DNA from: an uncultured Planctomycetota bacterium
GTDB taxonomy: Bacteria > Planctomycetota > JACOTG01 > JAUIME01
Direction of reading: 5' to 3'
NCBI GenBank assembly: GCA_964597885.1
Contig: CAZQZX010000001.1
Span: forward strand, 9,849-73,848
DNA: 64,000 bases
Below are positions 1,081 through 63,775 of the stretch, one piece after another (the stretch's first letter is position 1; each line of letters begins with the position of its first letter). Below the pieces are notes generated by a model that worked only from the letters and a program-made list of their open reading frames with translations, did no database searches and was not told where the DNA came from. A program made the position numbers and the translations under genes.

Positions 1081-2214
1081 ATGCAGACACTCCGTGGAAC
1101 GCTCGCGATCTTGCTGACGTTGGGCCTCGCCCTTCCCGTCGCCGCCGGAACCGTTCAGTTCTCGGACGGTGACTTCAACAACGGCGATTGGAACGTGCAG
1201 ACGCTTGTCTCGGGCGGCACCGGGACCGGGAGCTTCGTCCAGCAGTCCTCGGGCGGGAACCCCGATTTCTACCGGCAGCACACGATCGACCTGATCTCGA
1301 ACACGGTCGTCGCGATCGTTGCGGAGTACACGGCGTCGAACTTCGATCCCTCAACGGGCGGCATCGGCGCGATCGACTACTCCGAGGATGCGCGGCTCAC
1401 GTCGGGGAGCGACGAGGGCATGCTCACCTATCCGCTCGTCGTACAGGACGGCGTCAACTACGTCGGGCCGAGCCAGGCGACGCCCGAATCGGGCTGGACG
1501 CCGAAGTCCGCGAACGGGCTGACGTCGGCCGATTTCGGACGGCTCCTCGGGAACCTCAACGTCGACATGAGCGACAACCCGGACTTCGCGCTCGGAGCTT
1601 CCGTCGTGAGCTTCGGCTACGTGCGCCTGGTCGCGGTGGAGGCGGACGCGACGCGGATCGGCGACATCGACAACTGGAGCGTGACCGTGGAAGTCGTCGA
1701 GCCGATCGGAACGTGCGGCGCCGGCCAGATCAACCTGGGTTGCGGCTCGTCGTCGGATGTCCTCTTCGTCAACGGTTCGTCCGGTGGCGTCGATCGCATC
1801 CTCACCGTGTCGACGGGGGATCCGCTCTCGGCGACGATCGCCGAGCCGCCGATCTCGGTCGGCGACGGACGACCGACGGCGGCGTGTGTCTACGTCTGGG
1901 GCGGGGAGCCGCTCGCGAGCGACATCGTGGCGCTTCCGAAGAATCTCGGACCGATGTGCTTCGGACCCTTCATCATCGCGACGCAGGCGCCGGCGCGCAT
2001 CTGGAACGGCATCGGGATCAACCCGAAGCTCGGCACCGACAATGGCCCGGGCGACCCGCCGATCATCGACGGACCCGCGTTCGAGTTCCTGTCGCTGCCG
2101 AACGGCCTCAACCAGACGCTGAACGTGACGTTCCAGGGCATCATCGAAGACCGATGCTCGCAGGGCACGGTGTTTTTCAGCGTGACCAACGGTCTCGTGC
2201 TGCGCATCGAGTAG
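1081..2214 (+). CDS. Secreted protein of unknown function with a conserved C-terminal domain shared with 57051..59258 and 62549..63775
   Basis: The ATG at 1081 gives a signal peptide (MQTLRGTLAILLTLGLALPVAAG). The C-terminal roughly 110 aa (CVYVWGGEP...LPKNLG..CFGP...IWNGIG...QGIIED...SVTNGLVLRIE) aligns with the C-termini of two other secreted proteins in this window. Confidence 0.6.
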   Translation: MQTLRGTLAILLTLGLALPVAAGTVQFSDGDFNNGDWNVQTLVSGGTGTGSFVQQSSGGNPDFYRQHTIDLISNTVVAIVAEYTASNFDPSTGGIGAIDYSEDARLTSGSDEGMLTYPLVVQDGVNYVGPSQATPESGWTPKSANGLTSADFGRLLGNLNVDMSDNPDFALGASVVSFGYVRLVAVEADATRIGDIDNWSVTVEVVEPIGTCGAGQINLGCGSSSDVLFVNGSSGGVDRILTVSTGDPLSATIAEPPISVGDGRPTAACVYVWGGEPLASDIVALPKNLGPMCFGPFIIATQAPARIWNGIGINPKLGTDNGPGDPPIIDGPAFEFLSLPNGLNQTLNVTFQGIIEDRCSQGTVFFSVTNGLVLRIE

Positions 2215-6397: not shown

Positions 6398-7777
6398 TCA
6401 CGGAGAGGAACACGTCTCGTCCGCGGGGGAACTCTCCATCGGGGCCTCGGCGCGGGATGAGGACGCCTCGTCGATCGTCTTCGGCTCCCCGGGAAGCTCC
6501 ACCAGCACGCCGACCCGACTGTCCTTGGTGAGCTCGCCCTCGTCGAAGACGCGGATCACGCCGTACTCGCCGTCGTAGCCGGAATCGCGTCGCACGCGAC
6601 CCGCGCGCAGCCGATCGATGGCTTCGGCGACGAGCTCCGAGCCGCGATGCTCCAGCTCGTCGCGGGGCATCGTCTCGAGGATGTCGAGCTCGGAGCCGAG
6701 CCGCGCCACGAGCTTCTCGTAGGTGCGTCCGACCGTCTTGCTCTTCGGGCCGACGCCGTGGATCTCGCTCAGGATCTCGGGCAGCGGGACCAGGCTCCGG
6801 TAGGGCGCGGCCGTTTCCGGTGAAGCCGGCTCGTCGCGATCCGCGAGCTGGTCCACACGGTTCATCACGCCGACCGTGATCGGCTTCCCGCAGGCCGGGC
6901 ACGCGCCGCCGTGACGCCGCGTCTCGTCCGGGTCGAGTCGCATGCCGCACTTGCGATGCCCGTCGAGGTGGTACTTCCCTTCCTCGGGGAAGAACTCGAC
7001 GGTGCCTTCGTAGCCGACGCCCGTCTCGAGAGAGCGCCGCACGGCCATGTAGTCGAGGTCGCAGTCGAAGACGCTCGCTTCGCGGCCGATCTTGCCGGGC
7101 GAGTGCGCGTCGGAATTCGACACGAGTCGATACCGATCGAGGAACGACACGCGCCAGTTCATCGGCGGGTCCGAGGACAGTCCCGTCTCGACCGCGAAGA
7201 TGTGCGGCGTGAGATCGTCGTAGCACTCCTCGATCGAATCGAAGCCGGACTTCGAGCCGAGCGTCGAGAACCACGGCGTCCAGATGTGCGCCGGGATGAG
7301 GTAACAATCCTCGCCACACTCGAGCGTGATCTCGAGGAGGTCGCGCGAATCGAGTCCGAGGATCGGTCGCCCGTCGGACTTCAGGTTGCCGATGCGCGAG
7401 AGCTTCTCGATCAGCCGATCGGCTTCGTCGAGCCCCGGCACGTAGATCAGGTGATGGTTCTTTCGGGTCTTCTCGCCCTTCTTGTAGATGGTCGAGATCT
7501 CGACCTGCAGGAGAAAGCGAATCGGGCCGACGCACGACGGCGGGAGCCACGAATCGACCTCACGCTGGAGATCATCCCGCAGCCGGAACAGCCCGGGCTC
7601 GGCGGGGACGAGCTTCTCGCGGATCTCCTGGATCCACGCGGGGTGCGTGAAGTCACCGGTGCCGAGAAGCGAGACGCCCTTCTTGCGGGCCCAGTACGCG
7701 TTGTGCTCGAGGTCGAGATCCCGGCTGGTCGCGCGCGAGTACCTGGAGTGGATGTGCAGATCCGCGTAGAAACGCAT
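6398..7777 (-). CDS. PHP-domain protein, endonuclease Q-like (TIGR00375-type)
   Basis: The N-terminal MRFYADLHIHSRYSRATS is a PHP metal-binding motif. It has a conserved His/Asp pattern and a Cys cluster (CGMRLDPDETRRHGGACPACGK) like the EndoQ zinc finger. Confidence 0.55.
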   Translation of the reverse strand: MRFYADLHIHSRYSRATSRDLDLEHNAYWARKKGVSLLGTGDFTHPAWIQEIREKLVPAEPGLFRLRDDLQREVDSWLPPSCVGPIRFLLQVEISTIYKKGEKTRKNHHLIYVPGLDEADRLIEKLSRIGNLKSDGRPILGLDSRDLLEITLECGEDCYLIPAHIWTPWFSTLGSKSGFDSIEECYDDLTPHIFAVETGLSSDPPMNWRVSFLDRYRLVSNSDAHSPGKIGREASVFDCDLDYMAVRRSLETGVGYEGTVEFFPEEGKYHLDGHRKCGMRLDPDETRRHGGACPACGKPITVGVMNRVDQLADRDEPASPETAAPYRSLVPLPEILSEIHGVGPKSKTVGRTYEKLVARLGSELDILETMPRDELEHRGSELVAEAIDRLRAGRVRRDSGYDGEYGVIRVFDEGELTKDSRVGVLVELPGEPKTIDEASSSRAEAPMESSPADETCSSP

Positions 7778-7813
7778 CGCGCGATTCCCCTCCCGTCTTC
7801 GTGCTGTCGTGCG

Positions 7814-8596: not shown

Positions 8597-8629
8597 CGCG
8601 ACAAGGATAGCGCCGCGCGGACGGGTTGC

Positions 8630-9031
8630 CTAGCCCGCGGCGATCGGGTCGGCGCTCAGGATCATCGCGGTACCGGTCACGGCGGTCAGCACCGTCAGCA
8701 GCAGCACGAGATAGGCGAACCGCGCGTGGATCTTGCGGAGACCCTGCCGGCCGCGGAACGTCAGCCAGCCCGTGATGATCGGAGGCAGGTAAGCGAAGAC
8801 CGTGATCTTCGCGATCAGGAGATGGACCGGCGTGATCCAGCCGGCGGACTCGAGGTCGTAGAGCTCGCCCAGCTGCTCGGCAAACCAGATCGTGATCCCG
8901 AGCGACAGAACGGTCGTGATCACCGTCGCGAGGTGAGCGCGCCGCCGGCCCGTACGGCCGGTCACGACGACCACGCCGAGGAGCGAGACGGTCAGAACGA
9001 GAAACAACACGAAGCCTGTCGTGGTGGACAC
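8630..9031 (-). CDS. Small integral membrane protein (DUF420-like, 4 TM)
   Basis: The 133-aa translation has four hydrophobic helices. Confidence 0.4.
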   Translation of the reverse strand: MSTTTGFVLFLVLTVSLLGVVVVTGRTGRRRAHLATVITTVLSLGITIWFAEQLGELYDLESAGWITPVHLLIAKITVFAYLPPIITGWLTFRGRQGLRKIHARFAYLVLLLTVLTAVTGTAMILSADPIAAG

Positions 9032-9135
9032 CGGATTCTCCGCGCCGAGAGGGGAAAGTTAGGAGCATACTTAATCGGCGCCGCGCTGGGGCAGGGCGTC
9101 GCAACGCGCGGTGGGTTGTGCGAGAATGAGGGGGG

Positions 9136-10977
9136 ATGCGATCTCCGCTCGATACCACCCGCCGATTCGCGACACGGTCGCTCCGCGCCGGCCCCACGGG
9201 CTTTGCCGCGGCCGCGCTCTGGGTTTCCGCGCTCGCCGCCATCGAAGTGCTCGGACGCCATTCGCCCTCGGATCTCGGCGACGCGCTCGGCGTCCTCGGG
9301 CTCGCCGGTCTCACACTCGTGACGATCGTGTGGCACCGCGATGTCGGCATCGCGTGGGTCGGGTTCCTGCTGCGAGCGGGGCGCCGCGTGATGCGCGCGG
9401 TCGTGCATCGACAGGCCACCGTCGGCGTCGACTTCCGGGCCGGCTCGCTCGATCCCTTCGGCTACCCGACGTTCCTCGCGCACGTGTTCGTGGCGTGCAC
9501 GCTGCTGGCGCTGTTCGGCTGGTTCTGGCCGGGCGTCCCCATCGAGGACCTGCGGGCCGCGCTCGCGCCGCGCCTCTACGTCGGCTACCTCGCGATCCTT
9601 ACCCTGCTGTGGGCGGGAGTGCTGTTCCTGTCGCTCGGGACGATCGTCCTGTTCTGCATGATGGTGCACGACGCGTTCGTGTGTCGCTCGAAGGACCCCG
9701 CCAAGCGTTCGCTCCGGCCCGAGATCCTGACGCTTCTCGGATCGGGAGTCGCGCTGCTGATCGCGGCCGTGGCTGTGAATCCTCGAATCGCGGTGACGGC
9801 GACGATGCTCCTTCTCGGCGTGCTCATCTGCGCGGCGATCCTTCCCGTGTCGCATCCCGTTCGGCTGGTGTGGAAGTCGAAGGCGACCGGCGGTGCGCTG
9901 CGCGCGGTGTCCGTGCGCTTCATGTCGGCGATGGAGGGCATCCACCTGGTGCTCGCGGTCTCGGCGTTGCTGTTCATCGCGCTCGGGAACGTCGTGCTGC
10001 AGGGCTCGGACGGGATCTCGGAAACGACGCCGGTCTCGAGCATTCTCGGGCGATGGCTCGCGTGGACGGGCGCACTCGGCGGCGGCTCGTACCTGCTCTA
10101 CGTGCTGTCGATCCTCTGGCTCGGCGTGCGACTCGATCCGAGACGGGCGCCTCGCCCCTCGATTCACGTGGACGGGCTCGACTCGTTCGTCGAACGGCGA
10201 CGGCTGTCGCGGTTGCTCGGCGCGCTCGGCTGGAAGACGCGCTTCACGAAGACGGCGCGCCGTGCGGACGTGCGCGTGCAGCTCGTTTCCGAAGCGGAGG
10301 CCGCGCAGGCTGCCGACGAGGCGGACCGATGGCCGGCCCGCGTCTCGGCGCAATCGATTCTCCGCCCTGACACGCTGCGCCGGCTCGCCCGCCGCGACGA
10401 GGTCCAGCGCCGACGTCGACTGATCAAAGGGCTGGAGACGCTCTACAAGAAGGCCTCGTCGCGTTCGTTCAAGAAGGGCGAGGGCTTCTGGATCGGCGTC
10501 CACCACTGGTTCATCCTGGGCCTGTCGCGCGACGAGAGCGAGGATGACTTCGATCTGTACCGCGACACCTGGCTGCGGCAGCATGTCGGCCCGCCGGTGG
10601 AGCGTGCGATCGACTGGCCGGCGCGCCAGCACCTGCATCACGTGCTTTGGTGTCTCGACCTCGACCTCATCTTCCTCGAGGACGGCGTCGGGTTCCGGGG
10701 ACTCAGGCGAGTGCTTCGCATCCTGTTCGAGATCCACGACACCTACGGCGGGATGCAGCGAGCCGAAGAGCGCATGATGAGCGGGATCCCGGGCGTTCGC
10801 GTCCTGATCCAGGAGGTCGGTCTGGAGCGCTCGCTCGACGCCTCCAACTACCCCGAGCCGGACTACGAGGACATCGGCCGGGCGCGTGTGCTCCACGTGT
10901 TCCGCGACCGCGGAGGCGACGAGGAGACCTTCGACGTGCCTGCGGACTTCGACCACGTGCCGCTGCTCGTCCCCTAG
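9136..10977 (+). CDS. Large polytopic membrane protein of unknown function (N-terminal multi-TM region, C-terminal soluble domain)
   Basis: 613-aa ORF with at least eight predicted TM helices and a C-terminal domain rich in W/Y/F/K that looks like a real protein. The exact start is uncertain. Confidence 0.4.
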   Translation: MRSPLDTTRRFATRSLRAGPTGFAAAALWVSALAAIEVLGRHSPSDLGDALGVLGLAGLTLVTIVWHRDVGIAWVGFLLRAGRRVMRAVVHRQATVGVDFRAGSLDPFGYPTFLAHVFVACTLLALFGWFWPGVPIEDLRAALAPRLYVGYLAILTLLWAGVLFLSLGTIVLFCMMVHDAFVCRSKDPAKRSLRPEILTLLGSGVALLIAAVAVNPRIAVTATMLLLGVLICAAILPVSHPVRLVWKSKATGGALRAVSVRFMSAMEGIHLVLAVSALLFIALGNVVLQGSDGISETTPVSSILGRWLAWTGALGGGSYLLYVLSILWLGVRLDPRRAPRPSIHVDGLDSFVERRRLSRLLGALGWKTRFTKTARRADVRVQLVSEAEAAQAADEADRWPARVSAQSILRPDTLRRLARRDEVQRRRRLIKGLETLYKKASSRSFKKGEGFWIGVHHWFILGLSRDESEDDFDLYRDTWLRQHVGPPVERAIDWPARQHLHHVLWCLDLDLIFLEDGVGFRGLRRVLRILFEIHDTYGGMQRAEERMMSGIPGVRVLIQEVGLERSLDASNYPEPDYEDIGRARVLHVFRDRGGDEETFDVPADFDHVPLLVP

Positions 10978-22962: not shown

Positions 22963-25224
22963 CTACTTGCGGCGGACCTTCAGGCGCCGGATGAGCCGAT
23001 GCGCCCGCAGGGACTGCGACGAGCCCGGTTCGCGCTCGGCCACTTCCTCGAGGAACGCGAGCAGCTTCCCGCGGTCGTCGAAGCGCATGGCGATCCCGAG
23101 CAGCGCGTTCTCGACAAGGCTCTCCTTGCCGCGGTCGGCCTCGACGGCGCGACACCAGTTGTCGTACGCGCGGTCCCGGTCGAGGTATTCGGGGTGGGCA
23201 TCGAAGAACTCGACACAAGCCGCGCAGCCCGGAAGGGACCCGCCCTGGAACAGATGGGCGAGGCTCGTGAAGCAGCGCGGGTCCGGTTCGTCCCCGGCCA
23301 GTTCGATGGCTTTCTCGTAGGCCTCCACCGCCTCGATCACGCGATGGTCGGTGTCGAGGGACAGCGCTAGGTTGAACCAGACCTGCGCGCTCTCGGGCTC
23401 GTGGACGAGGATCTGCCGGAACAGCTCCTGGGCGTCGCCGTGCCGGCCCGCGTCGTCGAGGATCGCGGCCTCGATGTTCAGCAGATGAAGATCGCCTCCG
23501 GGTCGGATCTTGCCCCCGTCGGCCAGTTGTCGGCGCGCGGTCTGGATGGCCGCGAGCCCTTCGTCGAGGCTCCCGCGCCGGGCGTGGATCTTGGCGAGGA
23601 GCGACCATGCCCGCGCCGAGTCGCCGCGCAGCTCGAGGGATCGGTCGATCCGCTCGAGAGCCTCATCGAAACGTTTCTGTTTCTCCTGCACCCAGGCGAG
23701 GGCGTAGTGGACGTGCGCGCATTCGTCGAGGGGACCGGAGGCAGCATGGAAGAACTGCTCGGCGTCGGTGAGGTTGTCGTACTCGCGTGCGATCTCTCCG
23801 AGCAGCACCAGCGCGAGCGGGTTGGCGGGCTCTCGTTCGAGGGTGCTCCTCGCTCGGTCTCCCGCCTCGTCGAACCGTTCGGCCTCGAAGTCGAGGAGCG
23901 CGTGCCCGAGCTCGCGGACCGTCGCATCGTCTTCGTCCTCTCGAGGGGCCCGGCCTTGCATGCCACCCTCGAGGGCCCGCGCGATCGAGTCTTCGGGATC
24001 GAGCGAGAGGGCGGTGCGAAGCTCGCGTGCGGCCGCGTCGTCGTCGTCGTCGAGCCAGCGCTCGATCGCCCGTGCGGCCGCGGCGTCGGCCCGGCGCATC
24101 TCTTCCTCGGTCGGGGGTCGGTCGAGCATCGTCCTCGCTAGCAGAAGGACGAGCACGAGGGCGGCAAGGCCCGTGACGGCTCGCAACGGATGTCGGCGCA
24201 GGGCGGCCGCCGCGAGGCGAGCCGGTCCCGGGGGGCGTCCCTTCACGGGCTGGCCGTCGAGGAACCGACCGAGGTCGTCGGCGAGTTCACGCGCGGTCTC
24301 GTAGCGGTGCTTCGGATCGTGCGCCGCCGCCTTCATGACGATCCGGTCGAGATCCCGAGGCACGTTGCCGAAGAGCCGGCGCGGCGGCGCGAAACCGCCT
24401 CGAATCACCGCCTGGATGATCATCTCGCGCGATTGCTGCTCGTACGCGGGCTGGCCGACGAGCAGCTCGTACAGGATCATCCCGATGCCGTAGACGTCGG
24501 TGCGAGGGTCGGCGGGCTCGCCTCGGATGCGCTCCGGCGCCATGTAGCGCGGCGTCCCCACGAGGTCCCCGGTGGAAGTGAGCGAGGGGAGATCGTCGGC
24601 GGCCATGAGGCCGAAGTCGAGGAGGACCGGCGTCCCGTCGCGCCGCAGCATCACGTTCTGCGGCTTCAGGTCGCGATGCAGGATCCCTTGATCGTGGGCG
24701 GCCTGCACGGCGTCCGAGAGCGTGCGCGCGATCTCGGCGGCGCGTCGCCCGGATTCGGTTCCCGTGATCGACGAGAGCGACTCGCCCTCGATGAGGTCCA
24801 TCACGATGTAGGGCGTGCCGTCCTCGATGCCCGACTCGTGGACGGCGACGATGTTCTCGTGCTCGAGCCGCGCGAGCGTCTGCATCTCGCGACGGAAGCG
24901 CTCCATCGCTCTCGGCCCGGAGAGCGGTGCGAACGGAAGCAGCTTGATGGCGTACGATCGCTCGCCGTGCTCCCCTTCGTACACGACGCCCATGCCTCCG
25001 CGTCCGATCTCGCGAAGGATGCGGTAGGGGCCGATGAGCTTCTGCTCGGCCGGCGCAGCATCGCACACCGCGTCGAACGTCCGGAGCGTCGCGCGGATCG
25101 CTTCGAGCAGTCGTGGGTGCGTCGACTCGTGGTTCGATGCGAACGCTTCGGGAGAGAGTGACGGATCCTCGTCGCGCGCGTCGAGAAAGTCGGCGACGAG
25201 ATCCTCGAGCGACGGTTCAGTCAT
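22963..25224 (-). CDS. Ser/Thr protein kinase with a C-terminal TPR-repeat domain
   Basis: Hanks kinase motifs GRGGMGVVY, HRDLKPQNVML, DFG and GTPRYMAPE. A TM segment and TPR repeats are in the C-terminal half. Confidence 0.8.
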   Translation of the reverse strand: MTEPSLEDLVADFLDARDEDPSLSPEAFASNHESTHPRLLEAIRATLRTFDAVCDAAPAEQKLIGPYRILREIGRGGMGVVYEGEHGERSYAIKLLPFAPLSGPRAMERFRREMQTLARLEHENIVAVHESGIEDGTPYIVMDLIEGESLSSITGTESGRRAAEIARTLSDAVQAAHDQGILHRDLKPQNVMLRRDGTPVLLDFGLMAADDLPSLTSTGDLVGTPRYMAPERIRGEPADPRTDVYGIGMILYELLVGQPAYEQQSREMIIQAVIRGGFAPPRRLFGNVPRDLDRIVMKAAAHDPKHRYETARELADDLGRFLDGQPVKGRPPGPARLAAAALRRHPLRAVTGLAALVLVLLLARTMLDRPPTEEEMRRADAAAARAIERWLDDDDDAAARELRTALSLDPEDSIARALEGGMQGRAPREDEDDATVRELGHALLDFEAERFDEAGDRARSTLEREPANPLALVLLGEIAREYDNLTDAEQFFHAASGPLDECAHVHYALAWVQEKQKRFDEALERIDRSLELRGDSARAWSLLAKIHARRGSLDEGLAAIQTARRQLADGGKIRPGGDLHLLNIEAAILDDAGRHGDAQELFRQILVHEPESAQVWFNLALSLDTDHRVIEAVEAYEKAIELAGDEPDPRCFTSLAHLFQGGSLPGCAACVEFFDAHPEYLDRDRAYDNWCRAVEADRGKESLVENALLGIAMRFDDRGKLLAFLEEVAEREPGSSQSLRAHRLIRRLKVRRK

Positions 25225-25822
25225 CCTGGATGCCGCTCATCGCGATGCCGAGGCGGGAGAGCGCCCGGTTGTACAGCTTCGAGACGGCCTCGGGCGTCTT
25301 GCCGAGCGCTTGCGCCGCCTCCTGATTCGACTGGTTTTCGAACGCGCGCAGGAAGAGCACTTCGCGCATGTTCTCGGGAAGCTTTCCGATGCACAGCTCG
25401 AGCTTCTCGTAGAGCGCCGAATCCCAGTACGTGAGCTCGTCGTCGTCGCCGGGGACGCGGCTGAGCATCGAGTCGGAGAGCGGGACGTCGCCGGCTCGCT
25501 TCTGCGCTTTGAAGTAGTCGAACTTCTTGCGGATCTTGTTCAGCACGCACACGTGGAGGTAGCGGTTGAACGAGTCGCGGCCTTCCGGCTGGAAGTGGTC
25601 GATGTCGTCGACCACGTCCTTGAAGACGCTCTGCAGGATGTCCTCCGATTGGAGGCGGGTGCGCAGAGCCGGACCGAGGCGGCAGCGGGTGTAGAGCAGC
25701 AGCCGATCGCGGTAGCGCAGGTACAGCGCATCCCAGGCCTTCGGATCGCCGTCCTTGGCTCGATGGACGAGGTCGGTCGAGACTTCGCCGTCCGGGATCG
25801 GGGAAGTGGGTTCGCGCTCCAT
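25217..25822 (-). CDS. ECF-type sigma-70 factor, operonic with the Ser/Thr kinase (8-nt overlap)
   Basis: ATG at 25822 (MEREPTSPIP). Region 2 is LVHRAKDGDPKAWDALYLRYRDRLLLY. Region 4 is LPENMREVLFLRAFENQSNQEAAQALGKTPEAVSKL. Confidence 0.7.
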   Translation of the reverse strand: MEREPTSPIPDGEVSTDLVHRAKDGDPKAWDALYLRYRDRLLLYTRCRLGPALRTRLQSEDILQSVFKDVVDDIDHFQPEGRDSFNRYLHVCVLNKIRKKFDYFKAQKRAGDVPLSDSMLSRVPGDDDELTYWDSALYEKLELCIGKLPENMREVLFLRAFENQSNQEAAQALGKTPEAVSKLYNRALSRLGIAMSGIQDD

Positions 25823-25936
25823 GGGGACTCCTGCTGGCCATTGTAGCCGCCTCGCCGGGGGGAGGAAAGAACGCACACTTTGTTGCAACCGGCGGGGAGG
25901 CAAGCCGGTATGCTGCGTTGAACCGCGAGGATCTGC

Positions 25937-26434: not shown

Positions 26435-26946
26435 CGATGGACGAGCACGGCTATCGCGAACGGCTTCAGGCCTGCCTCGACGAGCGGCGCGACCCGCTCG
26501 ACGATGCCGTTCTCTGCGATTGGCTACTGGAGCATCCCGAGCACCTCGAGGAGCTGGCTCGGTTGCGGGAGACGCTCGCGGTGCTCGAATCCGCGGACGA
26601 GACCCCCGCGACCTTGGCGCCTCCGAGCGATCGGCGAGACGGCATCGGCCGAGGATGGAAGCGCGTCGCCGCGGTGGCGGCGGTGCTCGCGCTTTGCGTC
26701 TTCGGCTGGCGTCTTCTGGAATTGTCCGCCCCGCCACCGCGGACGGAAGAAGAAGTGCCACTCGTCGGCATCGTGCCTCCGGGCCGGGTGCTCGACTACC
26801 GGATGTCGGTCGTGGTGGAGCGCCCGAGCGAACGCGTCGCGACGACGTCGAGCGCGAGCGGACGCACCCGCAGCCGAACCTACGATCACGGCTCGAGCCG
26901 ACTCGAGGTGGTCACCGAAGAACGACGAATCGTCAGCGCTCGCTAG
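26431..26946 (+). CDS. Membrane-anchored anti-sigma factor (cassette 1)
   Basis: ATGA start/stop overlap with the sigma gene. It has an N-terminal anti-sigma helix domain, one TM helix (VAAVAAVLALCVFGW) and a short periplasmic tail. Confidence 0.55.
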   Translation: MTMDEHGYRERLQACLDERRDPLDDAVLCDWLLEHPEHLEELARLRETLAVLESADETPATLAPPSDRRDGIGRGWKRVAAVAAVLALCVFGWRLLELSAPPPRTEEEVPLVGIVPPGRVLDYRMSVVVERPSERVATTSSASGRTRSRTYDHGSSRLEVVTEERRIVSAR

Positions 26947-26974
26947 CGTGGCGAAACTGGAGAGGAGAGTCCGA

Positions 26975-27886
26975 ATGCGACGAATCGAACCCTGCGTCCT
27001 CGCGATGTTGATGGCCCTGTGGATGGCGTCCGCGGCGACCGCTCAGAGCGTGGAGCCCACGCTGCAGATCTACGATGTTCGCGATCTCGTGCAGTCTGCC
27101 GACGTCGAAGGTGAGGTGGACGAAGTTCGCGCGAAGAGGATCGAGGAGGCCACCGAGCATCTGGCCGAGGTGATCCGCGAATACGTGCAGCCCGAGTTCG
27201 AAGCCGGGCGAGAGGAGACGAAGGCGATCCTGACCGGCTCGATCGCCGTGATCGGCCGACCCGAGCAGCACCAGTGGACGCGTCGGTTCCTCGAGCACCA
27301 GAGGAAGAGCCAGGGCGTGTACTTCGACATCTCGGCGCGGTTCATCACGGTCGATGATGGCACGTTCGAGTTCGTCTTTCCGGAGCTCGAGCCGCAGGTC
27401 TTCGACGACGAAGAGGCCGGCGCGCTCGTGTCTCGGTTGCTCGAGCAGCAGGGCGCCGACGTCCTCAGTGCTCCGCGACTGCTCGTCCTGAACCGCCAGA
27501 AAGCCATGATCAGCGTCGGCAAGCAGATCAAGTACGTCCGCGACTACGAGGTCCACGAGAACGTACTGCCGGGAGATCGAACGCTCGAGGTACCGATCGT
27601 CGATTCGATCTTCGAGGGCATCGAGTTCGGGGGGCGGGTGACGAGGCTCGACGGATCGCTCGGTCTCGAAGTGTCGCTCGACGTGTCCGATCTCGAGCGA
27701 CCGATCCCGACGCTCGACACGCCCTACGGCCCGGTCGCGCTGCCCGAGCTGACGAAGGTGCGGCTGGAGTCGACGCTCCACATGGCCGACGGCGCCACCG
27801 CGGTCTTCCCCGGTCGGCGCGATGACGGGCGCAACCTGCTGATCGTCATCCGGGTGGCCCGCGTGGATCTCGACGAGCACCGGTAA
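26975..27886 (+). CDS. Mini-secretin: secreted 303-aa protein with one Secretin_N-like domain and a secretin-family C-domain
   Basis: ATG at 26975 with a GGAGAGGAG RBS. Signal peptide MRRIEPCVLAMLMALWMASAATAQS. GADVLSAPRLLVLNRQKAMISVGKQIKYV matches the secretin-domain core (vLs.P.l.tlnnq.A.i.vG). The C-terminus is NLLIVIRVARV. Confidence 0.55.
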   Translation: MRRIEPCVLAMLMALWMASAATAQSVEPTLQIYDVRDLVQSADVEGEVDEVRAKRIEEATEHLAEVIREYVQPEFEAGREETKAILTGSIAVIGRPEQHQWTRRFLEHQRKSQGVYFDISARFITVDDGTFEFVFPELEPQVFDDEEAGALVSRLLEQQGADVLSAPRLLVLNRQKAMISVGKQIKYVRDYEVHENVLPGDRTLEVPIVDSIFEGIEFGGRVTRLDGSLGLEVSLDVSDLERPIPTLDTPYGPVALPELTKVRLESTLHMADGATAVFPGRRDDGRNLLIVIRVARVDLDEHR

Positions 27887-28768: not shown

Positions 28769-29241
28769 AAGAAGAACACGAAGAGTCGAGCCGACGAGCG
28801 ATCGATGAGCGGTTGCACCGCGCGGTCGACGGCGAGCTGTCGGACGCGGAGTCGAGGGCCCTCGACGAAGCGCTCGATCGCGAACCGGAGCTGCGTGGCG
28901 AGCTGACCGAGCTCGAGAGCCTGCGCGATCTCATCTCCGACGTCGGGAGCTCGCCTCGCTTCGAGGCGGCCCCCGAGGGCCGTGCGCCGCTGCACGTTGG
29001 GTTACGCCGCTTCACGTCTTTTGCGGCAGCTGCGGCCGTGCTGCTGCTCGCGGGTGTGCTCGTGCTGCGTACGGATCGCGACCGCACCTCGCCGGACGGC
29101 GTCGAACCGGTCGGCCCGGACGCGCCGGCGGCCTCGCTCGAGATGCGCGTTGCGGAAGGAGAGGCGAGCCCGATGGTCGTCCCGCTGCCGAGTCGGCAGC
29201 CGGATGTCCACATCTTCTGGGTCTACCCCTTCGAGTCCTGA
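28765..29241 (+). CDS. Membrane-anchored anti-sigma factor (cassette 2)
   Basis: ATGA overlap with the sigma gene. Acidic N-terminal helix, TM helix (FAAAAAVLLLAGVLVL) and a short periplasmic tail. Confidence 0.55.
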   Translation: MKEEHEESSRRAIDERLHRAVDGELSDAESRALDEALDREPELRGELTELESLRDLISDVGSSPRFEAAPEGRAPLHVGLRRFTSFAAAAAVLLLAGVLVLRTDRDRTSPDGVEPVGPDAPAASLEMRVAEGEASPMVVPLPSRQPDVHIFWVYPFES

Positions 29242-29299
29242 GACTGACAAGACGAATCAATTCGCTCTCTCCCGAGAGAAGAGAAAGGAGCTTGGACCG

Positions 29300-30232
29300 A
29301 TGAAGTCACCGAGAACCGCGGTTTGGATGCTGCTCGTGGTGCTGCTTGGAACGTTGCCGTCGACGCTGTGCGCGCAGGATGGGCAGGGCAACGGGATCGA
29401 AGAGCTCGTCATCAAGACCTATGCGCTCGAGCACGCCCGTGCCTCCGATGTGGCCGGCGTCCTCGAGAGCGTCATCATCGGAAACTTCCGGATCGTGCCC
29501 GAGATGCGAACCAACCGCCTCATCGTGTCGGCCGGTGCTTCGCTTCACGCGAAGATGGTGGACACCATCACGACGCTCGATCGGCCGGTGAAGCAGGCCG
29601 CGGTGGCGCCGGGGACGGTCACCGAGATCCTCACGCCGCGGCATCGTCCGGTGAGCGCGCTCCTCGAGACGCTGCAGATGAACCTGTCGCGCGGCGGCCG
29701 CATCGTCGCCGACGAAGCGCGCAACGCGATCGTCGTCCGGGACGAAGCCGACAACGTGCGCTCGGTGAAGGCGCTCATGAACGACCTCGACGTCGCTTCG
29801 CGAGGGCTGTCGCTGCAGTTTCTGATCCTCGGCCCGGGCGGGCAGGATATGTCGAAGGTCCCGGATGCGAAGAAGGTGACCTCGGAGCTCGAATCCCTCG
29901 GCCTGAGCGGCTACGGGATCCGCGGGCGGGCGGCCGTCCGCTCCGTCGAGATGTCGAAGTTCGGCGCCGAGGGAATGTTCGACCGCGGCATGGTCTCGAT
30001 CGACGGGCGCGTGCGGCTGGTCCCGGATGGCGGCATCGCCGAGCTCGATCTGCGGGCGAAGATCAGCCTCGACATCGAGGTCGAGGACGCCCGCAAGATG
30101 GTCCCCGCGGTGGCGCAGATCACTTCGACGCTTCGGGTTCCGCTCGGGCATCTCGTGGTCGTCGGCCTGGCGCCGGCCGGGGGCGAGCCGAGCGAGCCGC
30201 TGGTCCTCGTGGTGCGCGCGGTCGCGGAATAG
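29300..30232 (+). CDS. Mini-secretin: secreted 310-aa protein with two Secretin_N-like domains and a secretin-family C-domain
   Basis: ATG at 29300 with an AAAGGAG RBS. Signal peptide [26 protein letters not shown]. The two Secretin_N-like repeats are [24 protein letters not shown]...[23 protein letters not shown] and LETLQMNL...[23 protein letters not shown]. The C-terminus is HLVVVGLAP...LVLVVRAV. Confidence 0.6.
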
Positions 30233-57050: not shown

Positions 57051-59258
57051 CTATCCGTCCTTCGGATCGGTGATGTCGAGGACGATCGCGTTGGTGACGC
57101 TGAGGGGAGCGTCCGCCGCCGAGCCGAGATCCTGGATGAAGCCCTGGACGGTGAGCACGACGGGGAAGGGCGCGCCGCCGGGCACGTGGATCGGCATCGA
57201 AGGCGCCGGCCCTGAATCGAAGTCGGGCTCGCCGAGGTTCTTGCGGAAGCCGAGGTTGTTCCAGACCTTCGTCGGCTGGTTCTGCGGGTTCGCGATCAGC
57301 GGGGTCGGAAGCGCCGTCCAGCCGAGACCGCGTGGATAGGGCGTCACGGTCGCGGGGTCCGGGGCCGAGCGCCACACGTAGAGCACGTAGCGCGCCGAGG
57401 CCGGGCCGGCGGGTGGAGCATCGACGTGGATCGAGAACGGCTCGCGCGTGTCGAGGCGGACCACGCGCTCGTGATCGGGGACGCGACCCTCCACGCGGAC
57501 GACATCGGCCAGGTCGGGCGAGGCGTCGTTCACCGTACCGTAGAGTGCGGCGATCTCGATCCGCATCTCGTCGGCGCCGATGTCGACGCGGGCGGTGCCG
57601 TCGCCATCACCCTCGATGCGACGATCATCGCCGTCGATGTCGAAATCGTTGAGCATCGCGCTGTCGTCACCGGCATCGATGCACGGGGAGTCGATGCGCA
57701 GGTGCAGATCGTGGCGGCCGGGCGCGACGAATCGCGGATCGGCTTCGAGGTTTCCGACTCCCGGCCAGTCTCCCTCGACAACGCTCATCGAGACCGTGGC
57801 CGATCCGCCGTGCATGTCGATCTGCGGATCCTGGACACACTCGTTGCCCCAGAAGATCGAGTTCACGACGGTGACGATGGAAGTATCCGCGAAGAGCCCA
57901 CCGCCGGACGTCGTCTCCGGCTCGGGCGCGCGAGCATGGTTGTACGCGATGGTGTTGTTCGCGAGCGTCGCTTCCGTTTGACCGACGTAGACCCCGCCGC
58001 CGTGGCCGCGCCGCGCGTCGTTGAAGGCGATGACGTTTCCGGCAAGGGTGAGGATCGAGTCGAGACAGTGGAGGCCGGCGCCGCTTCCCTGGGCGAGGTT
58101 GTTCTGGATCCGGTTGGCGATGACCTTCACGTCGCACTCGTCGCCTACGAGGATTCCCGCGCCGACGCGAGCTTCGTTGTCTCGGATGAGATTGCCCTGG
58201 ATGCGGGCGCTGCTGCGTTCGTCGCAGGCGATCCCACCGCCGAAGGCGAGGATCTGAACGTGTTCGACGATCTCGTTGTCGAGGAGCTCCGCGTTCGATC
58301 GGCGGCAGTAGATACCGCATCCCGAGAGCGCCGAGTTGCGTTGCAGGAAGTTGCCCTGGATGAGGGAATCGGTGTCGCCGACGAGCGCGATGCCGCCACC
58401 CGTGCCGCTGTTGCGGTTGTTCACGATGGCATTGCCGACGGCAACCAGCGTCGCGCCGTCACCGCAGTAGATGCCGGCTCCGGTTTGCGCGCCGTTGAGC
58501 TCGACGAGGTTCTCTTCGGCCCAGCAGATGGCGTTCGACGTGACGCCGACGCCCCCGCCGATCGCGCTGGCGGGCCCAGCGTGGTTGCTGCGGATGACGT
58601 TCTCGACGAGAAGCGCCGAGGAGCTCGCCGTGATCGCGACCGCTCCGCCGATCGCGCTCGCCTGGTTGTCTTCGAACGTGTTGCGTCGAATCTCGGGCGA
58701 GGAGCCGTCGCAGTACAGGGCGCCCCCCATCGTGGGCATCTGGACGCCGTGCAGGCTTCCGTTCTCTTGGAATCGATTCGAGAGAATGCGCGGGCTCGCG
58801 CCGCGGATGCAGGCGATGCCTCCACCGAATGTCGCGGTGTTGTCGCGGATGACGTTGTCGCGAAGAGTCGGGGAGGCGCCGTCGCACAGAACCGCGCCGC
58901 CGTAGACGGTGTTCACCACGACGGTGCCGGAACCGGCGGTCAGCGTGAAGCCTTCGAGAACGGCTTCCGAGTCTTCGCCGCTCTGGAACACGACGACGCT
59001 TCCGGCGCGACCGGCATCGATGATCGTGGATGCAGGGCCGTGCGAGCTCAGGACGTGGATGGCCTTGCCGAGGAAGTCAATCGATTCGGCGAAGCGGCCG
59101 GGGTTGACCAGGATGATGTCGCCGTCACGGGAGGCCTGAATCGCGGCCTGGATCGTGGCATGGTCGCCGGGAACCGAAAGCGTACCGGCTGCTGCCGTCG
59201 TCGCGAAAGCTGCGACGGTGAGCAGGAGCATGAGTACGAGAACGTTCCGGGCCGACAT
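57051..59258 (-). CDS. Secreted right-handed parallel beta-helix protein (pectate-lyase-like fold) carrying the shared C-terminal domain
   Basis: ATG at 59258 with an AAGGAGA RBS. Signal peptide MSARNVLVLMLLLTVAAFATTAAAG. There are many NxxxxN/IxxNxI beta-helix rungs. The C-terminal roughly 110 aa align with 62549..63775 and 1081..2214. Confidence 0.65.
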   Translation of the reverse strand: MSARNVLVLMLLLTVAAFATTAAAGTLSVPGDHATIQAAIQASRDGDIILVNPGRFAESIDFLGKAIHVLSSHGPASTIIDAGRAGSVVVFQSGEDSEAVLEGFTLTAGSGTVVVNTVYGGAVLCDGASPTLRDNVIRDNTATFGGGIACIRGASPRILSNRFQENGSLHGVQMPTMGGALYCDGSSPEIRRNTFEDNQASAIGGAVAITASSSALLVENVIRSNHAGPASAIGGGVGVTSNAICWAEENLVELNGAQTGAGIYCGDGATLVAVGNAIVNNRNSGTGGGIALVGDTDSLIQGNFLQRNSALSGCGIYCRRSNAELLDNEIVEHVQILAFGGGIACDERSSARIQGNLIRDNEARVGAGILVGDECDVKVIANRIQNNLAQGSGAGLHCLDSILTLAGNVIAFNDARRGHGGGVYVGQTEATLANNTIAYNHARAPEPETTSGGGLFADTSIVTVVNSIFWGNECVQDPQIDMHGGSATVSMSVVEGDWPGVGNLEADPRFVAPGRHDLHLRIDSPCIDAGDDSAMLNDFDIDGDDRRIEGDGDGTARVDIGADEMRIEIAALYGTVNDASPDLADVVRVEGRVPDHERVVRLDTREPFSIHVDAPPAGPASARYVLYVWRSAPDPATVTPYPRGLGWTALPTPLIANPQNQPTKVWNNLGFRKNLGEPDFDSGPAPSMPIHVPGGAPFPVVLTVQGFIQDLGSAADAPLSVTNAIVLDITDPKDG

Positions 59259-59449: not shown

Positions 59450-59941
59450 CTAGTCGAGCACCGTGTCCCAGTTCGAGGGAGGACGGTATCCGCGGTAGGC
59501 GAGGTGCCGATCGGGCGTCAGGACGACGAGGGCGGGGATGCCGGCGAGGTACAGGTTGTTGACCAGCGCGAGGTCCGAATCCCGGAGCAGGGGAACGTCG
59601 AGCTTCCAGTCGGAGGCGGCCTTGCGAATTCGGTCCGCGGAGATGGCATTCGACGGGCCCGGGGTGATGCCGAGGATTCGGACGCGATCGCGGAACGGTT
59701 CGACCGAGGTGCGAAGGTCGCCGGCGAGCGCTTCGCTGGTGGGGCTCGACGGGCTGAAGAAGAACAGCGCGATCGTCTCGCCCTGATCGAGGTGGCGCGC
59801 TCCGAGGTCGTATTCCTGATCGTCGAGATCCTGAACGGCGAGCGAGAACGGGAGGCGCGCCGGATCGTCGCCGCTCCCGGGCGTCGAGCAGGAGACCGCG
59901 AGGAGGACGCACACCATCAAGAGGACCGGAGTCCTCGCCAT
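59450..59941 (-). CDS. Thioredoxin-fold (TlpA/redoxin-like) lipoprotein with the CxxC motif replaced by SxxS
   Basis: ATG at 59941 gives MARTPVLLMVCVLLAVSC, a lipobox. The thioredoxin-like layout has SPSSPTS (ALFFFSPSSPTS) where TlpA proteins have WCGPC. Confidence 0.45.
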   Translation of the reverse strand: MARTPVLLMVCVLLAVSCSTPGSGDDPARLPFSLAVQDLDDQEYDLGARHLDQGETIALFFFSPSSPTSEALAGDLRTSVEPFRDRVRILGITPGPSNAISADRIRKAASDWKLDVPLLRDSDLALVNNLYLAGIPALVVLTPDRHLAYRGYRPPSNWDTVLD

Positions 59942-60040
59942 CGATCGCCAGTCGTTCGTCAGGATCATCGTTGTTCCCTCGGGCCCGCTTGAAGGCGACA
60001 GCGTACTAGCTGCGCCGGCCGGCGGCGAGCAGGGCCGATC

Positions 60041-62548: not shown

Positions 62549-63775
62549 TCACTGCACGCGCAGGATGATGGCGTTCGTCACGCTTGCGGGCCCGTCGGCC
62601 GCCGAGCCGTCGTCGAGAAGGATCGCCTGCAGCGTCGCGGTGACTGCGTTCGGCGCTCCGGCGGGAGCGTTCAGCACCACGGAAGGCGCCGGAGTCGACG
62701 GGAAGTCGGGGTTACCGAGCTGCTGCTGGCGGCCGATGTTGTTCCAGATCTTGAACGGCTGCGGGTTGCCGCCGGTCGGCGGGATCGGGAAGCAGAACAG
62801 CCCGAGGTTTCGCGGAAGCGTCACGACCGGCGTCTGCGGGACGGGCTCTCCGATGTGCAGGTACATCACGAACGGTCCGGGGCTCGGCCCTCCGGGCGAG
62901 GCCTGCATCGAGACCGAGATCGGCGCTCCCGTCGCGAGGTTGACCACGCCGTTGCCGTTCCCGGTCGACCCGTTCAGGGTCAGGACGTCCACCGCGTTGC
63001 CGTTGCCGGCGTTGACCCGGCTGCGCCGGCACGCGAGGAAGTCCTCCTCGCGGGTGAATTCGATGGTGAGCGTCGGTCGGTTGGCCGGCGTTCCCGATTC
63101 GCGGCTATCGAGTCGCTTGGCGGTACGCTGCTGGGACTCGTCGGTGACGAGGATCCAGCCGGCGTTCACGTTCGGGTTGTCGACCCACCGCTGGACATCC
63201 GAGATGAGGGCCGCGGTCGAGCTCACCGTGTACGAGCCCGGTCCCGAGATGGCGACGGTACCGGAGGCTTCCGAAACGAAGTCGCCGCCGGCCGCGTTCC
63301 ACGTCGTGTCGGAGAAGAACCGGTGGATCCACGTGGCGTCGTTCGTGCGCGAAGAGGCTCCGGCCCCCTCGCCGCGACCCGCATTGGACGTGCCCTCGCC
63401 CCAGCTCCCGAGTACGCGATGCACGCCGACGGTGCGGGAGGAGCCGTTCGCGACGTTGTTGCAGTTCACCGACAGGGTCACCGAGTCGATGCGGGCGCGG
63501 TCGGGCAGCGAGGTCACGTCGAAGAAGAGCAGCGCGCGGCGCTTGTTGCCGCTCGACTGCCCGGTGGTGCCCACGAAGACGTGGTTGCCCGCGCCGTTGC
63601 TCAGGTTTCCACTCGTGTCCTCGTACAGCGTGTTGTCCCGGGACGCGATGATCGTGGCCGTATCGGCTGCGGCGTTCGCCTGGAACAGAAGCGTCCCGAG
63701 GACACCCAAGGCGAGCAAGGTCAGGGGCAAGTGGGACCGGATCGAACGATCGGAACGAAGGTTGGAACGCACCAT
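62549..63775 (-). CDS. Secreted DNRLRE-like domain protein carrying the shared C-terminal domain
   Basis: Signal peptide MVRSNLRSDRSIRSHLPLTLLALGVLGTLLFQANAAA. The N-terminal region has a DNRLRE-like ASRDNTLYED motif. The C-terminal roughly 110 aa (FVMYLHIGEP...LPRNLGLFCFP...IWNNIG...SVTNAIILRVQ) are shared with 57051..59258 and 1081..2214. Confidence 0.6.
   Translation of the reverse strand: MVRSNLRSDRSIRSHLPLTLLALGVLGTLLFQANAAADTATIIASRDNTLYEDTSGNLSNGAGNHVFVGTTGQSSGNKRRALLFFDVTSLPDRARIDSVTLSVNCNNVANGSSRTVGVHRVLGSWGEGTSNAGRGEGAGASSRTNDATWIHRFFSDTTWNAAGGDFVSEASGTVAISGPGSYTVSSTAALISDVQRWVDNPNVNAGWILVTDESQQRTAKRLDSRESGTPANRPTLTIEFTREEDFLACRRSRVNAGNGNAVDVLTLNGSTGNGNGVVNLATGAPISVSMQASPGGPSPGPFVMYLHIGEPVPQTPVVTLPRNLGLFCFPIPPTGGNPQPFKIWNNIGRQQQLGNPDFPSTPAPSVVLNAPAGAPNAVTATLQAILLDDGSAADGPASVTNAIILRVQ

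Follow-up and report, generated by a model that had tools for sequence, protein, structure and literature searches.

Three secreted proteins of the locus end in one homologous domain

The 64-kb stretch of DNA analyzed here (the window) raises the question of whether three secreted proteins with different N-terminal regions end in the same domain and, if so, what this domain does for its carriers. Apart from the Bacteroidota and Proteobacteria, little is understood of how bacteria place large folded proteins on or beyond the outer membrane, with the Planctomycetota and related uncultivated lineages as a clear example. An earlier note, made from the sequence alone, had proposed that three genes, here designated A, B and C, share a C-terminal domain of 100-150 residues. 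Their open reading frames were recovered where it had placed them, with the following features.

1081..2214, plus strand: gene A (open reading frame and translation); 377 aa, predicted to be secreted; a signal peptide is followed by an uncharacterised N-terminal domain, and the C-terminal domain belongs to the cysteine-rich sub-type ("type A")
1081..1149, plus strand: predicted Sec signal peptide of A (MQTLRGTLAILLTLGLALPVAAG), read from the sequence; cleavage site approximate
1708..2211, plus strand: C-terminal domain of A, residues 210-377 (alignment and HMM), with an extra Cys pair and the loop LGtDnGPGdPPiIDg
57051..59258, minus strand: gene B; 735 aa, predicted to be secreted; signal peptide, right-handed β-helix, choice-of-anchor Q segment (sub-threshold) and C-terminal domain
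57564..57707, minus strand: segment of B resembling choice-of-anchor Q, residues 518-565 (NCBIfam NF041518)
57054..57551, minus strand: C-terminal domain of B, residues 570-735 (profile match to residue 729, then a 6-residue tail; DPKDG-type)
62549..63775, minus strand: gene C; 408 aa, predicted to be secreted; signal peptide, DNRLRE domain and C-terminal domain
63059..63601, minus strand: DNRLRE domain of C, residues 59-239 (NCBIfam NF033679)
62552..63034, minus strand: C-terminal domain of C, residues 248-408 (alignments); the sequence used for modelling

A, B and C carry one homologous C-terminal domain. When the full-length proteins were compared pairwise by blastp with composition-based statistics, the alignments were confined to the C-terminal parts, with E-values of 1.6e-14 for A and B (27% identity over 198 aa), 7.8e-22 for A and C (31% over 218 aa) and 5.6e-33 for B and C (37% over 219 aa). 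The C-terminal location claimed in the earlier note was upheld, but the length was not, as the boundaries drawn from profile matches give about 160-170 aa. In A, the HMM match covers model positions 2-165 and reaches the last residue of the open reading frame. Exactly three copies were found in the window by tblastn and a six-frame HMM search. The consensus of 143 domains reads C.xGxVN..G...DVLxVNGSxG...R ... LYaW.G.P ... P..LG.MCFPTPl.GG.P.P..IWNN.G....LG.P..PS.PAPS ... TlQG.I.D.GS.A..P.S.TNAvvL.V, in agreement with the motif string that had been read from the three proteins. The window has a GC content of 67% and contains many long spurious open reading frames on both strands, which is what an origin of the similarity in chance, in the low-complexity composition of a GC-rich genome or in artefactual gene calling would draw on. 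This explanation is refuted by blastp E-values down to 5.6e-33, by 1,401 clusters of relatives at E≤1e-10, by a GC3 of 0.87-0.89 in the frames of A, B and C, by a domain model with a pLDDT of 97.4 and by syntenic orthologs in another genome, and we regard its probability as practically nil.

Each of the three proteins opens with a typical predicted Sec signal peptide (read from the sequence), and an AGGAGG lies about 8 nt 5' of the ATG of gene A at position 1081. The N-terminal regions differ, as had been noticed earlier. The N-terminal part of A gave no family match by hmmscan against Pfam-A and NCBIfam, and among the best 150 family members it has one relative (P0029, 39% identity). The part of B ahead of the domain (its passenger) matches Beta_helix (PF13229) of Pfam in 5 stretches (E 2.4e-31, 109 bits, above the gathering cut-off of 25.9 bits) and also NosD (E 6.6e-13). 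The match of NF041518 to residues 518-565 of B scored 20.2 bits (E 5.1e-4), under the curated cut-off of 25 bits, and this segment stops 4 residues ahead of the C-terminal domain. The match of NF033679 to C scored 70.3 bits (E 1.9e-19), over the curated cut-off of 34 bits. The proteins end in ...SVTNGLVLRIE, ...SVTNAIVLDITDPKDG and ...SVTNAIILRVQ, an ending predicted to be a β-strand, without a hydrophobic helix.

The domain is predicted to be an Ig-like β-sandwich with conserved loops

The isolated domain of C was modelled with AlphaFold2 (model m424fbc00fb7b), which gave a confident β-sandwich (pLDDT 97.4, pTM 0.92) when 60 sequences were supplied and a pLDDT of 31 when the three window sequences were supplied alone. 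The predicted fold has about 10 strands in 161 residues and ends in a β-strand. The domain appears in the model as an Ig-like β-sandwich whose long loops are strongly conserved and rich in Pro and Gly. Superposition on Ig-like structures covers only about 80-100 of the 161 residues, and a Foldseek search of the model against the PDB and BFVD gave no match at E≤1e-3. Among 60 diverse sequences, 5 positions are invariant and a further 18 nearly so, and the conserved aromatic and polar residues of the loops are Y58, W60, W97-N98-N99, Q136, D141, S144, S151 and T153-N154. In three ortholog pairs, the domain is better conserved than the passenger (63 vs 49%, 54 vs 48% and 54 vs 38%).

We also examined the cysteines of the 143 domains. 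Columns 12 and 107 both hold a cysteine in 76 domains and neither does in 57 (10 discordant), while for columns 21 and 193 the respective numbers are 24 and 119 (0 discordant). The cysteines are thus gained or lost in pairs, which argues for facultative disulfides and an extracytoplasmic fold. The copy in B lacks the Cys pair; that of C has one Cys at domain residue 2 and a second within its LGLFCFP motif. Two sequence sub-types, which differ mainly in one conserved loop, were found, and both are present in one genome.

A large family of terminal, single-copy domains on diverse passengers

When 1.84 billion representative proteins were searched with a profile of the domain, 1,809 clusters were returned (E≤1e-3), with 1,401 remaining at E≤1e-10 and 278 at E≤1e-30. 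A word-indexed homolog search returned no match with the single domain of C and only 14 short, unnamed metagenomic proteins with the 60-sequence profile, so the family becomes visible only through an exhaustive profile search. No model of Pfam-A (2025) or NCBIfam 20.0 covers the domain, either in A, B and C at E≤1 or in 81 relatives, and a sequence search of the PDB gave no match to it, which bears out the view that the C-termini belong to none of the known sorting families. Literature searches retrieved no relevant description of such a domain. What A, B and C share is a family-level domain without an existing model, and a profile of it could label a whole class of "hypothetical" secreted or surface proteins in metagenomes.

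Position, copy number and signal peptides were scored in the best 150 of the 1,809 matches. The domain stops 0-7 residues from the C-terminus in 149 of these 150, and it never occurs twice in one protein. A signal peptide was detected in 109 of the 150 by a crude test, the remainder being mostly fragments. The expectation that the domain is always C-terminal on secreted proteins therefore holds among these 150 with one exception, P0008, in which a signal peptide is followed by the domain and then by an FGE-sulfatase, so that a free C-terminus is not obligatory. The passengers are very diverse and comprise Beta_helix/NosD (27), Chlam_PMP (11), FG-GAP (9), SBBP (8) and DUF7948 (7), together with PQQ, LamG, CBM96, FGE-sulfatase, multicopper oxidase, GSDH, M23, a PETase-like domain and TIG. 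At E≤1e-3, the choice-of-anchor Q model (NF041518) has matches in 19 of the 81 full-length relatives, the lowest E-value being 5.6e-7. The 30 residues upstream of the domain are rich in Gly and Asp, and this region shows no evident conserved cleavage motif at the domain boundary.

These data bear on three other functions that such a domain might have. A lectin-like or carbohydrate-binding module would tether enzymes and adhesins to an external substrate (polysaccharide, mineral or prey surface) and not to the cell's own envelope. The predicted β-sandwich, whose long loops carry conserved aromatic and polar residues, would fit such a module, as would the existence of two sub-types set apart mainly by one conserved loop, the N-terminal position in P0008 and the LamG or CBM96 among the passengers (CBM96 matches occur in 2 of the 81 relatives, in the passenger part). 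However, modules of this kind usually stand at either end, internally or in tandem, whereas 149 of the 150 copies scored here are terminal and no protein has two; carbohydrate-active enzymes do not dominate the passengers, with no glycoside hydrolase family among the 25 most frequent Pfam families of the relatives; and the domain has no match to a Pfam CBM. We consider a binding module unlikely. Even if it were merely that, it would be a new, large domain family deserving a Pfam or NCBIfam entry.

Alternatively, the domain could be a C-terminal pro-domain or a folding or stability cap (cf. PPC), which would assist the protein during export or folding, be removed afterwards and play no part in addressing. 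Its strictly terminal place on secreted proteins, enzymes included, and its position directly after the end of β-helix passengers would be expected of such an element. Against it, the passenger folds are unrelated (β-helix, propellers, cupredoxin, M23), which makes a common chaperone unlikely, the domain is better conserved than the passengers, the boundary has no evident cleavage motif, and neither PPC (PF04151) nor any other pro-domain model matches. We regard this explanation as improbable, and give equally little credence to an oligomerisation or self-association domain that would join secreted proteins in an extracellular or periplasmic lattice (a matrix or S-layer-like array). The single copy per protein and the high sequence conservation among paralogs would suit the latter, but nothing demands self-association over the binding of a separate partner.

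Proposed role in sorting or anchoring

A strictly terminal, single-copy, highly conserved module that is found in at least about 1,800 protein clusters on unrelated passengers is the usual sign of a dedicated sorting or anchoring pathway. The earlier note had proposed that the shared C-termini may serve sorting, attachment or oligomerisation, and each of these possible roles is read from the architecture. That diverse secreted proteins each end in a single copy would point to sorting or anchoring, and we give an even chance to the reading that the domain is a new sorting or anchoring module, outside the known sorting-domain families and similar in its working to the C-terminal domains of the type 9 secretion system (T9SS). 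This reading draws on the terminal position, the diversity of the passengers and the choice-of-anchor Q slot; the absence of an adjoining sorting gene and the arrangement of P0008 speak against it. The NCBIfam "choice-of-anchor" families are defined by the alternative C-terminal sorting signals that come after them, and by its sequence context the domain appears to occupy the slot where a sorting signal normally follows choice-of-anchor Q.

In such a scheme, the protein would be exported by Sec and its signal peptide removed, after which the domain would fold in the periplasm, stabilised in many copies by one or two disulfides. The folded domain would then dock on one common envelope partner, either a receptor or translocon protein or a conserved envelope glycan, and very different passengers would thereby be brought to, and held at, one location of the envelope. 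The carriers would be uncultivated bacteria with an outer membrane, in which the domain is attached once, at the C-terminus, to unrelated Sec-exported proteins. We lean somewhat towards non-covalent retention (an anchor) over a pure signal for translocation across the outer membrane. Among the passengers are several enzymes that are classically found in the periplasm (multicopper oxidase, GSDH, M23), which makes surface display a possibility rather than a given. With 160 aa and invariant loop residues, the domain is bigger and much better conserved than classical sorting tags, which would also suit a ligand-binding module.

The mechanism favoured here resembles that of dockerin/cohesin and SLH, which are non-catalytic and attach diverse secreted proteins to one surface partner. 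The present fold is unrelated to those of dockerin (helical and calcium-binding), SLH (helical) and cohesin (a jelly-roll), and the domain matches none of their Pfam models. The tags of PEP-CTERM/exosortase, LPXTG/sortase, MYXO-CTERM and GlyGly-CTERM take the same slot after choice-of-anchor, β-helix and DNRLRE regions. Short CTERM tags comprise about 25-35 residues, in which a motif is followed by a transmembrane helix and then a basic tail, whereas the present domain is a soluble fold of 160 residues that ends in a β-strand, has no hydrophobic helix and gives no NCBIfam tag match. Unlike the β-domain of autotransporters (T5SS; a 12-stranded β-barrel of about 250-300 residues, PF03797), the domain is modelled as a sandwich of about 10 strands and gives no Pfam match to it. 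PPC (PF04151), PKD, Big, FN3 and MG likewise show no sequence match, with the superposition limited to the same 80-100 or so of 161 residues, and PPC and Ig-like accessory domains are commonly internal or tandem, whereas the present domain is single and terminal.

Comparison with secretion systems, gene neighbourhood and carriers

Like the C-terminal domains of the T9SS, the present domain is the last element of Sec-exported proteins, is found once, at the C-terminus, on diverse passengers, and is modelled as a β-sandwich, perhaps an Ig-like one. As in the T9SS, a genome has many paralogous cargo genes, which lie scattered or in tandem without adjoining machinery genes, and two sequence sub-types stand side by side in one genome. 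T9SS C-terminal domains have roughly 70-100 aa; the present domain is about twice as long (160 aa) and far more conserved, and neither the type A (TIGR04183/PF18962) nor the type B (TIGR04131/PF13585) models match A, B, C or the 81 relatives. Moreover, the carrier MAGs are labelled Planctomycetota or unclassified, not Bacteroidota/FCB group. No T9SS core gene (PorK/L/M/N, Sov, PorU/V) was found in the 64-kb window or in the flanks of related loci up to 20 kb. GldK/GldJ matches of NCBIfam among the relatives were due to the FGE-sulfatase passenger and not to T9SS machinery.

Cargo of the type 11 secretion system (T11SS; Slam/DUF560) carries a folded C-terminal domain of about 150 aa behind diverse N-terminal effectors and uses a dedicated outer-membrane translocon, and the present family may resemble it in size and logic. 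T11SS cargo domains are 8-stranded β-barrels (TbpB-like) whose genes commonly lie beside the Slam gene, unlike the β-sandwich predicted here and the lack of a recurrent neighbour gene. The sole "TPR_Slam" match of Pfam in the window lay in a Ser/Thr kinase and was a weak TPR match that fell below the threshold. A more specific proposal is that the domain marks cargo for an outer-membrane protein-sorting or secretion system, so far undescribed, in Planctomycetota-related uncultivated bacteria. Such a system would be analogous to the T9SS or T11SS, other parts of the genome would encode a translocon or processing enzyme of its own, and the two loop sub-types would be read by different adaptors; we regard this as rather unlikely. 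The defined family offers a handle for phylogenetic profiling toward the partner machinery, and the domain, which is compact and confidently modelled, is suited to expression and testing.

A dedicated processing or sorting gene, whose co-occurrence had been considered in the earlier note, did not turn up beside the domain genes, either in the window or at about 12 related loci. All-against-all blastp of the open reading frames and Pfam searches of the flanks across these loci showed no recurrent neighbour; the sole recurrences were the synteny between the window and locus L001 (UvrD and a thioredoxin-fold protein) and one unknown secreted protein beside domain genes in two Co_bin.8 loci. Secretin-like genes at 26.5-30.2 kb were rejected as partners, being more than 25 kb from all three genes and inside ECF sigma/anti-sigma modules. 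Rfam, promoter and terminator scans returned nothing near genes A, B and C.

The domain genes are multi-copy and often in tandem, with three in the 64-kb window, two each in L001, L008 and L013, three adjacent in L009 and three in tandem in L012, and one MAG has at least 8 in the loci examined. A scan of a genome collection with 7 close sequences and two narrow peptide patterns gave 9 loci in 3 genomes, and a metagenome scan gave 3 loci with the domain; because two narrow patterns were used, taxonomic breadth and copies per genome are underestimated. The carriers found were a MAG labelled "bacterium" and MAGs labelled Planctomycetota. The L001 orthologs of B and C are 50% and 55% identical to them, respectively, and a gene lying between B and C also has its counterpart there:

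59450..59968, minus strand: thioredoxin-fold neighbour gene, between two C-terminal-domain genes (Pfam Thioredoxin_8, E 5.1e-5, 24 bits, below the cut-off of 27)

Its product is 37% identical to that of L001:8522-9199, which itself lies between the orthologous C-terminal-domain genes, and the usual CxxC position reads SPSS. This gene is of interest solely for the arrangement conserved in L001 and not as a proven part of a system. Outer-membrane-related functions encoded in the window are AsmA, MlaD, PqiA and secretin.

A shared C-terminal domain in three secreted proteins

The earlier note, made by a model from the sequence alone, had proposed that three secreted proteins of the window, here called A, B and C, end in the same domain of 100-150 residues and are unrelated in their N-terminal parts.

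1081..2214 (+): A, 377 aa; AGGAGG box upstream of the ATG
57051..59258 (-): B, 735 aa; right-handed beta-helix
62549..63775 (-): C, 408 aa; DNRLRE domain

The three frames have a GC3 of 0.87-0.89, high as in real genes (window GC, 67%), and each opens with a Sec-type signal peptide as read by eye. The proposed homology was borne out by blastp (E of 1.6e-14 for A/B, 7.8e-22 for A/C and 5.6e-33 for B/C), with similarity limited to the C-terminal 180-220 residues; the domain itself is longer than proposed, at ~160-170 residues. Chance or artefact was excluded as the source of the similarity. The window holds exactly three copies, as determined by tblastn and a six-frame HMM search. The N-terminal parts were indeed unrelated: that of B matched Beta_helix (E 2.4e-31) and also NosD in Pfam, that of C matched DNRLRE (70.3 bits), and that of A matched no Pfam or NCBIfam family. 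This N-terminal domain of A (residues 24-209; window 1150-1707, +) has one related cluster among the best 150 members of the family, P0029 (39% identical), which, like A, has a C-terminal domain of the cysteine-rich sub-type.

With a cut-off of E<=1, hmmscan of A, B and C against NCBIfam 20.0 and the 2025 copy of Pfam-A returned nothing for the C-terminal regions, in agreement with the earlier claim that they match none of the sorting or anchoring tags familiar to that reader. A scan of 81 full-length relatives against the same two libraries found no family common to all, a profile search of PDB chain sequences gave nothing (best E 0.07), and literature searches did not find a description of such a domain. 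The relatives in public sources are 'hypothetical protein' or nameless, without precomputed Pfam annotation. Judged by Pfam-A, NCBIfam and PDB sequences, the domain is thus no named family.

Family size and architecture

An exhaustive search of 1.84 billion representative proteins with a profile of the three window domains yielded 1,809 clusters at E<=1e-3; of these, 1,401 reached E<=1e-10 and 278 reached E<=1e-30. Among the best 150 of the 1,809 matches, from which all architecture figures come, the domain ended 0 residues from the protein end in 80, 1 in 47, 2 in 11, 3 in 8, and 4, 5 and 7 in one each, and never occurred in two significant copies per protein. A signal peptide was found by a crude rule in 109 of the 150, most of the others being evident fragments. 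The expectation that matches would always be C-terminal on secreted proteins therefore held for 149 of the 150 as to position and failed for a single outlier, P0008, a 487-aa metagenomic representative with 302 residues beyond the domain, in which a signal peptide is followed by the domain (residues 25-185) and then by an FGE-sulfatase-like domain, either as a true architecture or possibly through the fusion of two genes.

Glutamine occupied position +1 of the predicted cleavage site in 28 of 105 signal-peptide family proteins under a crude -3/-1 rule (background 2.8%; binomial p about 1e-19), including P0003, P0006, P0008, P0025 and P0028; A, B and C themselves lack it. A glutamine cyclotransferase is encoded in the window as well (16617-17567, +; PF05096, E 1e-95). 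Together, the excess and this gene resemble the 'Q-rule', which is described as Bacteroidetes-specific (PMC5837995, PMC10653852).

The passengers of the 81 scanned relatives were Beta_helix/NosD (27), Chlam_PMP repeats (11), FG-GAP (9), SBBP (8) and DUF7948 (7), together with DUF4394, PQQ propellers, LamG, CBM96, FGE-sulfatase, multicopper oxidase, GSDH, M23 peptidase, PETase-like hydrolase and TIG. A removable pro-domain or folding cap would hardly be expected on such a variety of folds, and we consider this explanation improbable. A substrate-binding, lectin-like module is somewhat less improbable, but carbohydrate-active enzymes are nearly absent among the passengers, and the strict terminal, single-copy rule further weakens it. 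The NCBIfam family 'choice-of-anchor Q' matched 19 of the 81, and in B it lies at residues 518-565 (sub-threshold, 20.2 bits), ending four residues before the domain. The name of the 'choice-of-anchor' families reflects the alternative C-terminal sorting signals that follow them, so the domain appears to occupy the slot of a sorting signal.

Predicted fold and sub-types

The consensus of 143 copies reads as follows.

Part 1: C.xGxVN..G...DVLxVNGSxG...R ... LYaW.G.P ...
Part 2: P..LG.MCFPTPl.GG.P.P..IWNN.G....LG.P..PS.PAPS ...
Part 3: TlQG.I.D.GS.A..P.S.TNAvvL.V.

Among 60 diverse sequences, 5 positions were invariant and 18 conserved at >=90%; many of these fall in predicted loops and are Gly, Pro or polar. 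A structure of the isolated domain, which the earlier note had called for, was obtained as a confident AlphaFold2 model with the 60 sequences (pLDDT 97.4, pTM 0.92; ~ten strands and two short helices); with only three sequences the pLDDT was 31. The modelled domain folds as an Ig-like beta-sandwich to which long, conserved loops are added. Foldseek gave no match at E<=1e-3 against PDB and BFVD, the fold searches returning generic relatives only, and no specific solved relative was found there or among PDB chain sequences.

The Cys near the start and that of 'MCFP' occur together in 76 copies and are both missing from 57, while 10 copies are discordant; for a second Cys pair the figures are 24 present, 119 absent and 0 discordant. 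This co-variation indicates facultative disulfides, and hence that the domain probably folds outside the cytoplasm. Copies with the second pair form a sub-type (24/143, A included) whose central loop reads LGtDn.PGP.PvIpD, versus LG.PDFPS.PAPS in the others, and whose passengers among scanned members are enzymes and propellers (GSDH, M23, multicopper oxidase, LamG, FG-GAP). Both sub-types occur in the window.

Genomic context

The window from 54.9 to 63.8 kb is syntenic with locus L001 (contig JAUIME010000005.1) of the MAG 'bacterium Co_bin.8', with identities of 73% for UvrD, 50% for beta-helix plus domain, 37% for a thioredoxin-fold protein and 55% for DNRLRE plus domain. In ortholog pairs the domain was more conserved than its passenger (63 vs 49%, 54 vs 48% and 54 vs 38%). 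The following genes lie between those for B and C:

59450-59968 (-): thioredoxin-fold protein; L001 counterpart at 8522-9199
60041-61915 (-): 624-aa cytochrome c protein; three CxxCH haem-binding motifs, N-terminal and central
61912-62448 (-): cytochrome b562-like; overlaps the start of the gene for the 624-aa protein by 4 nt

The place of the thioredoxin-fold gene between the beta-helix and DNRLRE genes is kept in both genomes. Its product has a possible lipoprotein signal (…LLAVSC) and carries SPSS at the usual CxxC position, so it is probably redox-inactive. The cytochrome pair (60.0-62.4 kb), which sits between two C-terminal-domain genes, is missing from L001; the C-terminal half of the 624-aa protein ends in ...GVRWIATF, a sequence reminiscent of an outer-membrane beta-barrel signal.

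Two narrow peptide patterns retrieved nine loci from the species-representative genome collection, seven in Co_bin.8 and two in MAGs labelled Planctomycetota, and the metagenome collection gave three more. Family genes cluster in L001 (2), L008 (2), L009 (3 adjacent), L012 (3 tandem) and L013 (2 tandem). The flanking genes are unrelated housekeeping genes (MMPL, LysE, guanylate kinase, YicC, CHAT, FtsX/MacB), and all-against-all comparison of flanking ORFs across loci revealed no recurrent partner gene. In two Co_bin.8 contigs (L002:3076-4242, +; L007:8422-9390, +) a C-terminal-domain gene is directly adjoined by one whose secreted product lacks annotation and has the motif ILFFPLYDS...VTNT; identity between the two copies of this product is 37% over 256 aa, and the window has no homolog.

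A candidate sorting or anchoring domain

A C-terminal sorting or anchoring domain, which one common partner would recognise to sort or anchor the cargo, has in our view about an even chance of being correct. It is suggested by the single copy at the very end of the protein, the unrelated passengers on signal-peptide proteins, the many paralogs per genome, the position directly after a choice-of-anchor segment, the extracytoplasmic fold and the stronger conservation of the domain than of its cargo. The earlier proposal of an undescribed sorting or attachment domain thus stands as to terminal single copies, diverse secreted passengers and the lack of a named family, while P0008 and the lack of a recurrent neighbour speak against it. 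An oligomerisation module might be considered instead, with a low probability. Within the sorting or anchoring reading, we lean slightly towards a domain that would keep its cargo on an envelope component rather than act purely as a signal for outer-membrane translocation, given its N-terminal position in P0008, the conserved loops that look like a putative binding site and the coexistence of two loop-defined sub-types.

Functionally, the closest known system is the T9SS C-terminal domains, although the domain has no sequence match to their models. Nor did it match PEP-CTERM, LPXTG, autotransporter, PPC, dockerin or CBM models; it differs from all these families in size and conservation, its likeness in fold is generic only, and by sequence it fails to belong to any family tested. 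T11SS cargo carries a folded C-terminal targeting domain, which the present domain also resembles. Given this likeness without membership, we place the domain among the C-terminal addressing modules of secreted proteins, neither as a member of an existing family nor, on present evidence, as something categorically new.

Other genes of the window

The AsmA, MlaD, PqiA and secretin-like proteins encoded in the window show that the source organism possesses an outer membrane. More than 25 kb separates the secretin-like genes from each of the genes for A, B and C; they lie in what are apparently two consecutive modules (25937-30232, +) of ECF sigma, anti-sigma-like and secretin-like genes, with two further genes just upstream:

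22963..25224 (-): Ser/Thr kinase with TPR repeats
25217..25903 (-): further ECF sigma
26504..27886 (+): secretin-like (Secretin, E 8.8e-8)
28982..30232 (+): secretin-like (Secretin_N, E 1.6e-22)

Three neighbouring genes within 6398-10977 matched nothing in Pfam, and a gene for a small membrane protein lies among them:

6398..7777 (-): 459 aa
7814..8596 (-): 260 aa
8630..9031 (-): small membrane protein, recognised from its translation
9136..10977 (+): 613 aa, multi-pass membrane protein whose C-terminal part is large and soluble
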